This document shows, in pieces, positions 604 to 10,739 of a stretch of 11,508 bases of DNA; the stretch's first letter is position 1; each line of letters opens with the position of its first letter. The DNA comes from a virus (taxonomy: Duplodnaviria; Heunggongvirae; Uroviricota; Caudoviricetes): the IMG/VR virus record IMGVR_UViG_2681813225_000024, positions 1 to 11,508 of that record. One strand, written 5' to 3'. Made by a program: the position numbers and the translations under genes. A model generated the notes under the pieces. That model made no database searches, was not told the DNA's origin, and saw nothing but the letters and a program-made list of their open reading frames with translations.

Positions 604-836
604 GCTGCACCTCCGAGATGCTTCATGTTTTTTCCGGAGCGAAAGGTTATAAGCGGCATACTGACGCGGTAATTACGGCCCAGCGGTTCACAAATCACCT
701 TCTGACATTCACGGTCAACCAGGCTAACACGTAGAACATGCCCTGCAGGCGTGGTGTACCACTGCCCAACTGTAGGAATTGATGTTTTTTTACGCTGAAA
801 TAAACGGTAAATATTGAGGATCAACGGATTAAGCAT
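600..836 (-). CDS. Hypothetical small phage protein (78 aa)
   Basis: ORF track; ATG at 836..834; its stop overlaps the replication gene ATG (ATGA) and its start overlaps the upstream gene stop (ATGCTTAA), giving translational coupling within the operon. No recognisable motif. Confidence 0.45.
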   Translation of the reverse strand: MLNPLILNIYRLFQRKKTSIPTVGQWYTTPAGHVLRVSLVDRECQKVICEPLGRNYRVSMPLITFRSGKNMKHLGGAA

Positions 837-1473
837 GACGATGCCCTCCGCTGATATTCAGGAGACGGTGAATATGAAAATTAGCCTTATCCGCCAGACG
901 AATACGTTCAGCCTGCAAGTTAAGAAGGGTTTCTACCAGAACCTGATGCGCCTGCGGATCCGAAAGAGTTACCTTGCGCAGAGCACGTAGTGCAGTTGTT
1001 ACATAACTGAGTTTATGTAAGTCTTCATCATTCAGACGAGTGAGGGCTGGGACAGTAGCCATGATGGCAGCCTCCTTGATCGGTGAAATACTTCCACCAC
1101 CGGAAACGCCAATTTCGCTGGTGGTGAACTGAACGGGGTTGGCGTAACCGGTGATCAAGGAAACCGGCGCATCTTTCGATGCCCCCGCCCAGCCCACCAT
1201 AACTTTGATGTGAGCAAATGCGGACGATAAAAAAGACGCTGGCGCGTCATATATCGCCTTGATCAATTCCAGGACGCCAATCCCGGCACCCGCTTTATAA
1301 GGTGCCTGAACAGTGTAACGTCCCGGAATGGCAGAATCAATGTGCTGGTGGTCCTTCACACTCAACAAAATCACGCCTGAATTTCCACAAAGGACTAAAG
1401 CACTCATGCGGGTAGTCTTTGCGAAGATAGATAACGCGCTGTGTTTCTGGTTCCCAACGAATAACATGGACAT
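829..1473 (-). CDS. Hypothetical phage protein; start uncertain (ORF opens at TTG 1518; ATG at 1473 has RBS-like AAGAGGG just upstream)
   Basis: ORF track 829..1518, 229 aa. Sequence looks protein-like (ALVLCGNSGVILLSV, GVSGGGSISPIKEAAIMATVPALTRL). Its 5' part overlaps the upstream 109-aa ORF out of frame, so the start or the gene integrity is unresolved. Confidence 0.4.
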   Translation of the reverse strand: MSMLFVGNQKHSALSIFAKTTRMSALVLCGNSGVILLSVKDHQHIDSAIPGRYTVQAPYKAGAGIGVLELIKAIYDAPASFLSSAFAHIKVMVGWAGASKDAPVSLITGYANPVQFTTSEIGVSGGGSISPIKEAAIMATVPALTRLNDEDLHKLSYVTTALRALRKVTLSDPQAHQVLVETLLNLQAERIRLADKANFHIHRLLNISGGHRHA

Positions 1474-1666
1474 AAAGCCCTCTTCCGTCACGAAACCAGC
1501 GGTTAAGTTCCCGCACAACTCGCCCCCCCACAGTCAGGTAAAGTTCTCTGTGGTTACTTACAGCCAGGTGATTTGGTAATCTGCATTCATGCCGTAACAA
1601 CAGGTGTTCAGCGACACTGACCACCAGCTGTTGCGACAAACGGTTATTTGCCGTTAAACTGTTCAT
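1337..1666 (-). CDS. Hypothetical phage protein (109 aa)
   Basis: ORF track; ATG at 1666..1664 overlaps the stop of the upstream CII-like gene (ATGA); GGAG-containing RBS about 10 nt upstream. No recognised family. Confidence 0.45.
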   Translation of the reverse strand: MNSLTANNRLSQQLVVSVAEHLLLRHECRLPNHLAVSNHRELYLTVGGRVVRELNRWFRDGRGLYVHVIRWEPETQRVIYLRKDYPHECFSPLWKFRRDFVECEGPPAH

Positions 1667-2257: not shown

Positions 2258-2458
2258 TTAATCTTTCGGATAGATATCCGGTCTTAAGTCAGATTTCGTA
2301 ATTGCACCTGACGTGCATTGCTCAAGTTTTTTCGCCAGCACAAAACTGGCTTTTTTATAACCATTGAAAACCAGCCGTAAGTAGCCAGGTGTTGAGCCAA
2401 CTTTTCCGGCCAACTCGCCCTGCTGTTCTTTGGTTAAAGAGTCCCAATACGCTTTCAT
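2258..2458 (-). CDS. Cro-like HTH regulator (YdaS/Cro family), 66 aa from ATG 2458
   Basis: ORF track frame 2258..2563; internal ATG at 2458 gives MKAYWDSLTKEQQGELAGKVGSTPGYLRLVFNGYKKASFVLAKKLEQCTSGAITKSDLRPDIYPKD, a typical small Cro/YdaS-type HTH. AAGG RBS about 10 nt upstream. Divergent from the CI-like gene across an operator-bearing intergenic region. Confidence 0.65.
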   Translation of the reverse strand: MKAYWDSLTKEQQGELAGKVGSTPGYLRLVFNGYKKASFVLAKKLEQCTSGAITKSDLRPDIYPKD

Positions 2459-2464
2459 ACAATA

Positions 2465-2531
2465 TGTACCTTCAGTATACATATTACATGATTGAAATGA
2501 ACCTTCAAGATACTTGTACCTTATCGGTACA
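2465..2531. promoter_or_regulatory. OR-like operator cluster: three 17-bp sites fitting TGTAC-N7-GTACA, with divergent promoters for cro-like and cI-like genes
   Basis: Sites read directly: 2465-2481 TGTACCTTCAGTATACA; 2498-2514 TGAACCTTCAAGATACT; 2515-2531 TGTACCTTATCGGTACA (perfect palindromic half-sites). They lie between the cro-like start (2458, minus) and the cI-like start (2549, plus). Confidence 0.5.
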
Positions 2532-2548
2532 AAGGTTTTAATTTCGTT

Positions 2549-3223
2549 ATGAAAACAATCCATGACATCCGGCGGTCTAACGCCAGAAACCTGAGAGATG
2601 GTGTTGGCGGAAATTCATCCTTTGCCACCATGATTGATCGCGAGCCAACCCAGACCAGTAGGTTTATGGGGGATGGCGCTACTAAAAATATCGGTGACAG
2701 CATGGCACGGCACATCGAAAAATGTTTCGACCTGCCTGTCGGATGGCTTGATCAAGAACACCAGACAACGAACATCACAAAAAAACCTGATGTTTCAATC
2801 ACTAACAAACAAATAACGTTAGTCCCTGTCATATCATGGGTACAGGCCGGAGCATGGAAAGAAGTTGGCTATTCTGAGGTTGATTTGAGCACAGCAGAAA
2901 CGTATCCCTGCCCTGTCCCCTGTGGCGAAATGACTTATATCTTGCGGGTGATTGGTGATTCAATGATTGATGAGTACCGCCCTGGAGACATGATTTTTGT
3001 TGATCCCGAAGTCCCTGCCTGCCACGGTGACGACGTTATTGCATTGATGCACGATACAGGCGAAACCACCTTCAAGCGATTGATAGAAGATGGAACACAG
3101 CGTTATCTCAAAGCATTAAACCCAAACTGGCCTGAGCCTTACATTAAGATTAACGGTAATTGCTCTATAATTGGTACAGTGATTTTCTCGGGAAAACCAA
3201 GAAGATACACAATAAAGGTCTAA
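2549..3223 (+). CDS. CI/LexA-like prophage repressor (N-terminal HTH, C-terminal S24 peptidase autocleavage domain), 224 aa
   Basis: ORF track. C-terminal region has the S24 hallmarks: GDSM (Ser nucleophile) in RVIGDSMIDEYRPGDMIFVD and a downstream Lys in TTFKRL. The N-terminus is HTH-like. Weak RBS, as is common for cI genes. Confidence 0.85.
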   Translation: MKTIHDIRRSNARNLRDGVGGNSSFATMIDREPTQTSRFMGDGATKNIGDSMARHIEKCFDLPVGWLDQEHQTTNITKKPDVSITNKQITLVPVISWVQAGAWKEVGYSEVDLSTAETYPCPVPCGEMTYILRVIGDSMIDEYRPGDMIFVDPEVPACHGDDVIALMHDTGETTFKRLIEDGTQRYLKALNPNWPEPYIKINGNCSIIGTVIFSGKPRRYTIKV

Positions 3224-3235
3224 TCAATATTTATG

Positions 3236-3260
3236 AACCTGCTTCGGCAGGTTTTTTTAT
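3236..3260 (+). terminator. Rho-independent terminator downstream of the repressor gene
   Basis: Stem ACCTGC (3237-3242) / GCAGGT (3247-3252), loop TTCG, followed by a T7 run (3252-3258). Confidence 0.7.
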
Positions 3261-3262
3261 AC

Positions 3263-3291
3263 TTGACAATGTACTCATGAGATACATAACG
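3263..3291 (+). promoter_or_regulatory. PL-like early-left promoter with overlapping OL-like operator
   Basis: Perfect -35 TTGACA at 3263-3268; weak -10 candidate CATAAC about 16 bp downstream. The 17-bp site TGTACTCATGAGATACA (3270-3286) has the same TGTAC-N7-ATACA architecture as the OR sites. Confidence 0.4.
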
Positions 3292-3708
3292 TATCCAAAA
3301 GAAACATGGGGCAGGCAAGATTCAAACAAAATTTGGTTGTAACACGGCGTATGGCACATGCGTCGTTAGCGGTCTGGGGACGTTAAAGGGGACAATCCAC
3401 TCCTTGCTCGGGCAAACAAACCAGGTAGCCGGAATGTGCAAGTCAATGATGATGCTGATAAGACGCCTAACCAGCGTGGCGATCCGGTTTGACGCCTGGG
3501 AAGAGACCAGGGTGCAACGATGAGGGCATTTATGGAGCCGCGACAAAGTGTGGTGCCGTAACTGGCTAAGTGCTCTCAGCGTTGTGGTCATCCGCGAAAT
3601 GGCGCGGCGGTAAGTATGGCTGGGTTACTCTTTCCCCGTTGAGGACACCGGATTGTCAGGTTGACCATACGCCTGAGTGACAACCCCACCACAACAGCCA
3701 CTGCTTTG

Positions 3709-8918: not shown

Positions 8919-8954
8919 TTTTCCCGGGTGCAGCCGGTTTTGATGGAGAAAATT

Positions 8955-9236
8955 ATGAACACCTTGTTTTTACTGATGGCTGAATTCAATACCCCTAACA
9001 TTGAACTCTCAGCAGTTAGCCAAAAGTACTTTGGCATGAGTCCAGCCACGGCAGAAGCAAAAGCAAACGCTTGTAAGTTGCCCGTTCCAACATATCGCAT
9101 CGGCACATCACAAAAAGCAAAACGTTGCATCAATATTCAGGATCTTGCGGAATACATAGACAAAAGACGAGAAGAAGGACGTATCGAGTGGGAACAGGTC
9201 AGAACAAGCAAACAGAAGGGCAAAGAACATCACTAA
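8955..9236 (+). CDS. PrtN/AlpA-like small DNA-binding regulator, possibly excisionase-like (93 aa from ATG 8955)
   Basis: ORF track frame 8928..9236; ATG at 8955 with GGAG 7 nt upstream. MNTLFLLMAEF...PVPTYRIGTSQKAKRCINIQDLAEYIDKRREEG resembles pyocin-activator PrtN family proteins. Last gene before the bidirectional terminator. Confidence 0.55.
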   Translation: MNTLFLLMAEFNTPNIELSAVSQKYFGMSPATAEAKANACKLPVPTYRIGTSQKAKRCINIQDLAEYIDKRREEGRIEWEQVRTSKQKGKEHH

Positions 9237-9457: not shown

Positions 9458-9653
9458 AGAAAACTCCCGAGACAGTAAAGGCGTCTCTAACCCTTTCTTT
9501 AAAGCTAGCTTGTTTCGCTAACTTATGCCAATCGATCATGTCGATTGGTGACATCGTTTCTTAGTAGTTTAAGCACAAAACGACTGCCATAGATGTACCT
9601 TTAAGGTAATCTGGACGGGTATCCTACAATTTGTAGACCCTTCTCGTCTATAC

Positions 9654-10225: not shown

Positions 10226-10739
10226 TCTCATTCTTAAGCCGCGTATGGATTACACCTTGAAATGAAAACGCCGGGTTCCCAATAGGCTCCCACAGAGTGT
10301 ATAACTACTTGTTTTTCAAAAACGGTACATCCTATCGAGCATTGGTGCAACGCTAAACCGACCACTCCAGTGAACGTCAGTTTTTTCAGGCATTGCGCTG
10401 GTTTGGTTGATTTTTTGCATTTCAGAATTACCGTGCATTTTCAAATGTAGAGATTATTTTATCAATATATCATGGGGTTATGTTATTCAGCTTCACTGTT
10501 CAGGAGGCTCAATAGCGGGGTACTATACCATAACAACAGGAAGCGCCTGTCTCATTGCAAAAGAAAATTGAGATCCTCTCAAGGCATGAAGCTCTCACGA
10601 AGTGATGGAAATAATCTTATTAGCCGTTAACTTTGTTAAGGCCAATGATAAACAATCCAGGTTCGACGATAAATAAAAAATCACACATTAAACTCTGGTG
10701 ATATATCTCCCTGCTAATAGCATTGATAGAGAAAAAAGA

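Follow-up and report, generated by a model that had tools for sequence, protein, structure and literature searches.

Putative operators of a lambda-style switch of the e14/SfV immunity type in a prophage region

In phage lambda, the genes encoding the CI repressor and Cro are divergently transcribed, and three right-operator (OR) sites, each of them a 17-bp dyad, overlap the promoters PR and PRM. The cI mRNA that starts at PRM is leaderless, and the middle OR site precedes this start by approximately 42-43 bp. Past the terminator on the cI side, three left-operator (OL) sites are located on PL. Two systems closer to the DNA studied here are the e14 prophage of E. coli K-12 and the Shigella phage SfV. 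The e14 repressor, YmfK (CohE), has been described as an SOS-sensitive, CI-like protein (PMC8249747; bioRxiv 10.1101/2020.11.19.390815) and was proposed as the controller of ymfM (bioRxiv 10.1101/2020.11.19.390815), and phage SfIV is reported to have CI and Cro proteins 100% identical to their SfV counterparts (PMC3851460). The GenBank record of SfV carries a "putative operator region" (positions 26377-26445 of the record), annotated as one region with the individual sites unmarked; its OL sites are unannotated. Only statements about a "putative" or "likely" repressor were encountered in the literature on SfV, cdtI, e14, YmfK and CroE, and the searchable literature yielded no binding, footprint or start-site data on the e14/SfV immunity type.

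The DNA analysed here (hereafter, the window) is a stretch of 11,508 nucleotides. Its segment 2200-3900 was compared with phages of the SfV group (SfV, SfIV, cdtI, 2H10, Ayreon and Stx2c phages) and showed 95.8-99.3% nucleotide identity, the highest value (99.3%) corresponding to 2H10 and the range 95.8-98% to Ayreon, cdtI, Stx2c-converting phages and SfV. Of 5426 complete E. coli genomes, 1324 had matches of at least 90% identity, and the exact sequence was seen in five. The assignment of two divergent genes to CI and Cro, made in a preliminary description of this DNA, was borne out by their near identity with YmfK and YmfT (Table 1) and by the dyads between and beside them, which behave as operators of the adjacent pair. 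The annotated SfV operator region coincides with positions 2464-2532 of the window, exactly from OR1 through OR3. Hence, with a near-identical repressor and Cro and the same operator sequences at the same positions (OR2 is identical in e14 and SfV, while OR1, OR3 and OL1 differ by 1-4 bases), the locus belongs to the e14/SfV group, and the matching operators would give shared immunity with e14 and SfV. The immunity specificity that the preliminary description had presented as newly defined by these sites is therefore an already known one, that of e14 (YmfK/YmfT) and SfV.

Table 1. Coordinates of the switch features in the window (PWM, weight matrix score and rank)
Feature	Position	Strand	Sequence or elements	Remarks
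cro-like gene, YmfT/CroE ortholog	2258..2458	-	66 aa	65/66 aa identical to K-12 YmfT; RefSeq ymfT
OR1	2465-2481		TGTACCTTCAGTATACA	1 mismatch; PWM 18.0 bits, rank 2; takes in the final PR -10 base, the predicted PR start (~2474) and the Shine-Dalgarno sequence of cro
Predicted PR	2481..2508	-	-35 TTGAAG (2508..2503), 16-bp spacer, -10 TAATAT (2486..2481)	
OR2	2498-2514		TGAACCTTCAAGATACT	imperfect, 3 mismatches; PWM 9.9 bits, rank 5
Predicted PRM	2514..2542	+	-35 TTGTAC (2514-2519), 17-bp spacer, -10 TTTAAT (2537-2542)	
OR3	2515-2531		TGTACCTTATCGGTACA	perfect dyad within the PRM -35/spacer; PWM 23.4 bits, rank 1
cI repressor gene, YmfK/CohE ortholog	2549..3223	+	224 aa	221/224 aa identical to K-12 YmfK; RefSeq ymfK
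cI intrinsic terminator	3235..3259	+	8-bp stem, then T-run	annotated in SfV and Ayreon records
PL	3263..3290	+	-35 TTGACA (3263-3268), 16-bp spacer, -10 CATAAC (3285-3290)	
OL1	3270-3286		TGTACTCATGAGATACA	1 mismatch; PWM 16.6 bits, rank 3
OL2 (degenerate)	3290-3306		CGTATCCAAAAGAAACA	lies on the end of the PL -10 and on the start region; PWM 6.9 bits, rank 7

The domain organization of the two proteins was analysed by profile and structure comparison. In Pfam, the Cro protein gave weak matches to YdaS_toxin and HTH_3, and CI matched only Peptidase_S24 (residues 93-212, E = 1.5e-26), the HTH_3 model remaining undetected on its N-terminal domain. Residues 1-72 of CI were nevertheless modelled by AlphaFold (AF2) as a five-helix XRE domain with a pLDDT of 91, in which residues 22-40 form the predicted helix-turn-helix (HTH) and residues 33-40 (PTQTSRFM) the predicted recognition helix. 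The best PDB match of this domain was the N-domain of the SPC32H Rep protein (5d50, TM 0.83), followed by 434 repressor, P22 c2, HigA and C-proteins, and a profile search also retrieved Rep over these residues (E = 4e-9); the identity to Rep is 37%. Among solved structures, Rep is thus the nearest relative of this DNA-binding domain; unlike CI, it has no S24 peptidase domain, and an antirepressor inactivates it. For the full-length model the best structural match was intact lambda CI (3bdn), and the residues of the self-cleavage motifs are conserved (Ala-Gly in ..VQAGAW.., Ser in GDSM and Lys in FKRL). The window therefore encodes a repressor with an N-terminal HTH and a C-terminal LexA-like S24 domain, as in lambda. 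The YdaS-YdaT pair of CP-933P/Rac was considered and set aside as a different repressor family. One clade of Stx-phage CI proteins has been reported, on Pfam evidence, to "lack the HTH domain" (PMC8951638). Judged from the structural model, a missing Pfam match is not a missing HTH, at least for the CI of the window: a protein scored as HTH-less by Pfam has a predicted normal XRE DNA-binding domain together with cognate operators. No operator analysis was found in the literature on Stx-phage CI proteins (Eru types, CI clades).

The dyad TGTAC-N7-GTACA was searched for throughout the 11.5-kb window. Allowing up to one mismatch, four matches were obtained against 0.18 expected, a number attained in none of 200 shuffled sequences, and with up to two mismatches there were 12 matches against 3.3 expected. 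Three of the four best matches (starting at 2465, 2515 and 3270) fall in regulatory spacers, and the fourth (11339) within a coding region. A weight matrix trained solely on sites of other genomes was then scored on the window, and OR3, OR1 and OL1 took the first three places, OR2 the fifth and OL2 the seventh among approximately 11,500 positions. An additional match of 12.5 bits at 9594-9610 is probably due to chance; comparative support is absent there because this module is 100% identical in phage mEp460. A candidate site in the 3' coding region of cI (3193-3209) reached 0.5 bits and was rejected.

A protein search yielded a large family of full-length CI homologs, and 80 loci were recovered by genome scan; comparative footprinting used 31 distinct sequences of OR and about 28 of the PL region. 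Among about 29 loci with repressors 50-99% identical to that of the window, ranging from Escherichia to Halomonas, three blocks were found upstream of cI in every case, starting 84-88 (mostly 84-85, for OR1), 51-55 and 34-38 bp before the ATG and reading, in this order, TGTACCTCCnnnGTACA, TGAACCnnCAAGGTACT and TGTACC-N5-GGTACA. The spacing of 33 and 17 bp between them hardly varies (the Halomonas locus L029 has 34 and 16 bp), and the sites hold fixed positions relative to the cI ATG and to the PL -35. Information content amounts to 1.3-2.0 bits per position in the arms and 0-0.26 bits at the five central positions; likewise, 24 distinct ortholog versions of OR3 hardly differ in their arms and show no constraint on the central 5 bp. 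Read from these alignments, conserved arms flanking a free centre are the signature of a dimeric HTH operator, and the extent of arm conservation indicates that the site is better written as TGTACC-N5-GGTACA. The motif also changes with the protein: repressors with the recognition helix REPTQxSR are accompanied by TGTACC-N5-GGTACA, those with REPSYISR (L030) by wTTACC-N4-GGTAAw, and those with SSYLSQV by TTAKC-N6-GMTAA, all at the same location. In Rosenbergiella, moreover, OR1 and OR2 have a variant half-site, GGAAC, in common, and OR2 is a perfect palindrome of the variant (AGTTCCTTCAAGGAACT). This covariation and the Rosenbergiella half-site tie the motif to the adjacent repressor and not to a host factor. 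The search for the motif in the window and in related genomes, which had been suggested as a check, thus supported the sites on both counts, since the dyads are in excess and are kept in loci with an orthologous repressor.

In the 90-bp spacer between the divergent cro and cI genes, as in lambda, three dyad sites overlie the predicted PR and PRM, and their positions are conserved. None of PR, PRM and PL was called by a generic sigma-70 scan of the window (PR scored 8/12 against a cut-off of 9/12), and their assignment was therefore made manually and from conservation among orthologs. The TTG of the PR -35 and the register of the -10 (TAATAT or CATAAT) are kept in orthologs, as are the TnTAAT -10 of PRM and its distance of 6-7 nt (6 nt in the window) from the cI ATG. 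Such a short distance leaves no room for a Shine-Dalgarno sequence, which suggests that the cI mRNA is leaderless. The preliminary description had counted three dyads here and, among its four sites in all, one with perfect half-sites. The perfect one is OR3 (no mismatches), and OR1 is also strong; the third can only be OR2, which is weak in the window. OR2 is, in turn, an 82% direct repeat of 2464-2480 at a distance of 33 bp, covers the PR -35 and has its centre 43 bp upstream of the cI ATG. Its TGAACC...GGTACT is kept at fixed spacing in orthologs, so that the position of the third site holds in spite of its imperfect sequence. The strongest consensus match thus lies on PRM and not on PR, the reverse of the lambda affinity order.

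On the other side of cI, the left early promoter carries operators of the OR specificity, also as in lambda, although two sites were found instead of three. The CTTGACA and CATAAT motifs are near-invariant in the PL regions of orthologs, and a promoter is annotated at the same place in the Ayreon record. The general arrangement in relatives is CTTGACA-A-TGTACC-N5-GGTACA-TAA-TGTACC-N4-AGnAACA, that is, the -35, OL1, the CATAAT -10 straddling the OL1 end, and OL2; the right arm of OL1 is GGTACA or GATACA. OL1 was formerly placed on the PL -35. It begins instead one base past TTGACA, fills the spacer and touches the first two bases of the -10. Nor is OL1 the single left site previously reported, since a second one, degenerate in the window and kept in most relatives, follows 3 bp downstream (20 bp from centre to centre, a spacing strictly kept in orthologs). 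Of 24 distinct OL2 versions among relatives, about 15 read TGTACCnnnnAGnAACA and about 9 lack the right half. These alignments indicate that the e14/SfV-type family has two left operators, the second of which is eroded in the window through a T>C change at 3290, specific to this copy, and a C>T change at 3294 that is common to its closest relatives.

Comparison with six close relatives revealed three substitutions unique to the window. At 2472, C>T (C in all six relatives) gives GAAGG in place of GGAGG as the ribosome-binding site of cro and is also position 8 of OR1; at 3275, C>T turns TGTACC into TGTACT in an arm of OL1; and at 3290, T>C converts the PL -10 from CATAAT, present in every relative, to CATAAC and is at the same time the first base of OL2. 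The copy-specific changes explain why only one OL site had been noticed. The phages of the SfV group, which are functional, differ from the window in these features and retain the GGAGG ribosome-binding site of cro, TGTACC in OL1 and the CATAAT -10. The e14 prophage resembles the window in the positions of OR1, OR3, OL1 and OL2 and in the layout of terminator and PL, with few base differences, but carries the consensus versions of OR1 (TGTACCTCCGGTGTACA), OL1 (TGTACCTTTGAGATACA) and the PL -10 (CATAAT), has TGTACCCAAGAGAAACA as OL2 (also found in SfV), and possesses another PL leader module and other flanking operons. The surrounding host region contains pseudogenes and lacks an integrase beside a dusA fragment, which is consistent with a decaying prophage.

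One important question is whether all five sites are operators. OR1, OR3 and OL1 alone might have this role, the conservation of OR2 and OL2 being imposed by the PR -35 and by the PL start region. The weaker pair does have 3 (OR2) and 4 (OL2) mismatches among 10 arm positions in the window, OR2 includes the conserved TTG of the PR -35, the left half of OL2 abuts the PL -10, and the right half is the one that many distinct relatives (about 9/24) have lost. However, the promoter elements do not need TGAACC in the PR spacer or GGTACT upstream of the -35, and both are conserved. The 33/17-bp spacing is near-invariant even at a distance (34/16 in a single remote locus), OR2 of Rosenbergiella is a perfect dyad of a variant half-site that also occurs in its OR1, and a matrix derived from external genomes still places OR2 fifth and OL2 seventh of about 11,500 positions. 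We therefore regard a set of only three operators as unlikely.

Two further readings deny the sites to the phage repressor altogether. The palindromes could act as nucleic-acid hairpins, in a terminator or an attenuator, and in a consensus scan 2514-2532 did stand out as a terminator-like stem-loop with a T-rich stretch behind it. However, the arms do not covary but are invariant, with the same arm sequence repeated at five places; it is the arm sequence itself that is conserved while the loops vary freely, and the sites sit precisely on promoter elements. This explanation is very improbable. The host repressor LexA is another candidate, given that its box and the half-site have TGTA in common and that LexA-cleavage-dependent induction of e14 genes was attributed in a 2024 study to weak LexA boxes (PMC11228462); SOS induction would then depend directly on LexA. 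The LexA consensus is CTGT-N8-ACAG, whereas the dyads of the window are spaced as TGT-N11-ACA, and the variation of the motif with the recognition helix of the phage repressor across clades would not be expected for LexA. A SOS-cleavable CI is encoded beside the sites, and earlier genetics placed the e14 division inhibitor outside LexA control. For the SOS-dependent induction of e14, CI operators provide a simpler reading than the weak LexA boxes. That the five sites are themselves LexA boxes seems hardly credible.

It is highly probable, from the conservation described above, that the sites are operators of a lambda-style lysis/lysogeny switch of the e14/SfV immunity type. CI dimers would recognise TGTACC-N5-GGTACA through the XRE-type HTH (residues 22-40), and the 66-aa Cro very probably recognises the same dyad. 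Occupation of OR1 and OR2 would switch off the cro-cII-replication operon. OR3, placed between the -35 and -10 of PRM, would be occupied either by Cro or, at a high level, by CI, with the consequence that cI is switched off. The centre of OR2, 43 bp upstream of the predicted PRM start, corresponds to where lambda CI is placed when it activates PRM, and CI at OR2 may act likewise. OL1 in the PL spacer and OL2 at the PL start would mediate repression of the early-left operon (yfdP/Q/R ... xis), and RecA-stimulated self-cleavage of the S24 domain at the Ala-Gly bond would release repression. Since OR1 and OR2 are 33 bp apart (approximately 3.1 turns) and OL1 and OL2 20 bp (approximately 1.9 turns), the members of each pair should lie on the same face of the DNA, which would favour pairwise cooperativity; the 17 bp between OR2 and OR3 (approximately 1.6 turns) put these two on opposite faces.

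The organization resembles that of lambda in the divergent cI and cro genes, the 17-bp dyads, the three OR sites, the probable leaderless cI mRNA, the OL sites at PL past the cI terminator and the HTH plus S24 repressor. It differs in the operator sequence, which is unrelated, in the OR spacings (33 and 17 bp versus 24 and 23 bp in lambda), in the number of OL sites (two versus three), in the position of the perfect dyad (OR3 instead of OR1), in the lack of an N gene and in a cII of the CP76/phage 186 type. The perfect dyad on PRM, the abutment of OR2 on OR3 and the 33-bp distance between OR1 and OR2 raise the possibility, still doubtful, that e14/SfV-type switches are wired unlike that of lambda. 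With such wiring, the first CI or Cro dimer would bind at the cI promoter, resulting in tight negative autoregulation, and repression of PR would depend on cooperativity between OR1 and OR2 or between OR and OL (about 800 bp). It is likewise a doubtful possibility that the three regulatory substitutions of this copy have locked or silenced the prophage. As it stands, the finding is correct but ordinary, a standard lambda-like switch with nothing conceptually new, and because the immunity region is known and already annotated, the novelty of the operators is low. The immunity type itself is carried by roughly one in four complete E. coli genomes, and its carriers include K-12 (e14), Shigella serotype-converting phages and Stx2c and Cdt toxin phages. 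The five-site map based on TGTACC-N5-GGTACA supplies direct targets for testing the induction of such prophages.

Downstream of the left operators, no gene is annotated in the 670 nt that separate cI from yfdP. Neither Rfam 15, even with permissive settings, nor a tRNA scan gave any match in the PL leader. Positions 3343-3514 (+ strand), with conservation extending to approximately 3530, are 78-88% identical to unannotated intergenic DNA of several unrelated phages, namely P1/P7, between tRNA-Ile and ban, and the epsilon15-like SPN1S, TL-2011b, O157 typing phage 9 (just upstream of tRNA-Arg) and a Klebsiella phage. An invariant core, GGTAGCCGGAATGTGCAAG, was present in at least 120 IMG/VR contigs. 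When 22 diverse copies were folded with RNAalifold, 27 pairs were obtained, 8 of them with compensatory changes. Pairing was possible in 98.7% of the cells, as compared with 90.4% in shuffles (0 of 500 attained the observed value) and 24-39% when the partners were slid, and the covariation score was 0.266 versus 0.114. The G-U pairs place this RNA on the strand of the PL transcript. In SfV, e14 and many orthologs the leader is a different conserved one, which has a loop of 12 nt and a 5-bp stem that covaries. Since such phages lack N, an RNA-based role in antitermination is a reasonable guess. The 600-nt PL leader thus contains a widely conserved, covarying structured RNA without an Rfam family, which is more novel than the operators.

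The stretch between cI and yfdP on the PL transcript was found to contain a conserved structured element that is apparently non-coding. Copies of this element were detected in P1/P7, between tRNA-Ile and ban, and in epsilon15-like phages, and at least 120 IMG/VR contigs carried it; GGTAGCCGGAATGTGCAAG is its invariant core. The RNAalifold structure comprised 27 pairs, 8 of which showed compensatory changes, with pairing in 98.7% of cells and a covariation of 0.266 versus 0.114 in shuffles. Covariation was also observed in a local hairpin, CGGCGTAT-GGCAC-ATGCGTCG, whose loop (GGCAC) could possibly form a pseudoknot by pairing with the invariant AUGUGC. The element showed no match to any Rfam family and no tRNA was found in it. 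It may represent an RNA-based antitermination element in these N-less phages.

Coordinates of the features (window positions unless a compared locus is named)
Feature	Position	Strand	Details
Conserved structured element	3343-3530	+	~170-190 nt; PL leader, cI-yfdP interval
Alternative PL-leader module, SfV (L001)	~2613-2680
Alternative PL-leader module, K-12 e14 (L086)	~2647	-
Alternative PL-leader module, compared loci L003-L013 and L017	~3264
Substitution	2472		cro Shine-Dalgarno sequence, GGAGG>GAAGG; unique vs six close relatives
Substitution	3275		OL1 arm, TGTACC>TGTACT; unique vs six close relatives
Substitution	3290		PL -10, CATAAT>CATAAC; same base is OL2 base 1; unique vs six close relatives
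C4 antisense RNA	1117-1204	-	strong Rfam match, 82 bits
isrK	1229-1305	-	strong Rfam match, 64 bits
Ash-family protein ORF	829-1518		Pfam Phage_ASH ~1036-1317
Region near the prophage end	8928-9236	+
Region near the prophage end	10316-10444	-
Region near the prophage end, compared locus L212	15516-16999

In SfV, e14 and many orthologs, another conserved module occupies the PL leader in place of the structured RNA of the window. This module, which like its covariation was spotted by eye only, consists of CAGGCAGGACGCCCACGAAGTAGCC followed by a 5-bp stem enclosing a conserved 12-nt loop, GGCRTAYGAAKR; the stem covaries among CCTGG/CCAGG, CCCCA/TGGGG and CCGGT/ACCGG.

Comparison with six close relatives revealed three substitutions particular to the window copy, and all three fall in regulatory elements. 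Of 5426 complete E. coli genomes, only 5 carried the exact sequence. These substitutions could be a sign that regulation of the prophage has decayed or that the prophage has been silenced.

All five operator sites are intact in the e14 prophage of K-12, in the ymfK-ymfT spacer and at PL. In a transcriptome study from 2024, the induction of almost every e14 gene depended on LexA cleavage, which the study explained by weak LexA boxes (PMC11228462). We infer a simpler explanation, namely that RecA-dependent cleavage of YmfK, the CI ortholog, de-represses e14 at the five putative operators. If amplification of RecA were required, this route of de-repression would likewise be closed in lexA3 strains.

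Other palindromes were found at the same place, upstream of the cI homologs, in distant relatives of the window CI (loci L030 and L032-L082). L030 carries three copies of wTTACC-N4-GGTAAw, and the clade with the SSYLSQV helix carries TTAGC/TTATC-N6-GCTAA/GATAA. A -10-like TATACT lies 7-8 nt upstream of the repressor ATG in distant loci of this family and, given this spacing, leaderless repressor mRNAs may be a trait of the whole CI family. No HTH was detected in the window CI by Pfam search, but residues 1-72 (2549-2764) were confidently modelled as an XRE five-helix domain. One CI clade of Stx phages has been classed as "lacking the HTH domain" on the basis of Pfam (PMC8951638); this absence may be an artefact of profile sensitivity, the window CI being only a candidate member of that clade.

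One additional operator-like match, TGTACCTTTAAGGTAAT at 9594-9610, ranked fourth in the window under the operator matrix, at 12.5 bits. This match is situated close to the prophage end, in an intergenic spacer that lies upstream of small ORFs on the minus strand, and is probably due to chance; its conservation is uninformative because phage mEp460 shows 100% identity over the 261 bp around it. The last gene of the early-left operon encodes a PrtN-family (excisionase-like) protein, beyond which there are two small minus-strand genes and then dusA, present as a 5' fragment. The genes at this end include no integrase, and several CDSs near it are annotated as partial or frameshifted. Taken with the dusA fragment, these features point to a prophage that is associated with dusA and possibly degraded.

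Downstream of cII, the C4 and isrK matches are located inside the Ash-family ORF, so that the RNAs overlap with the region of the "Ash" domain. This region looks like an antisense control module of the P1 immI type. A weak Rfam match to the c4-a1b1 target was also visible within the same ORF.
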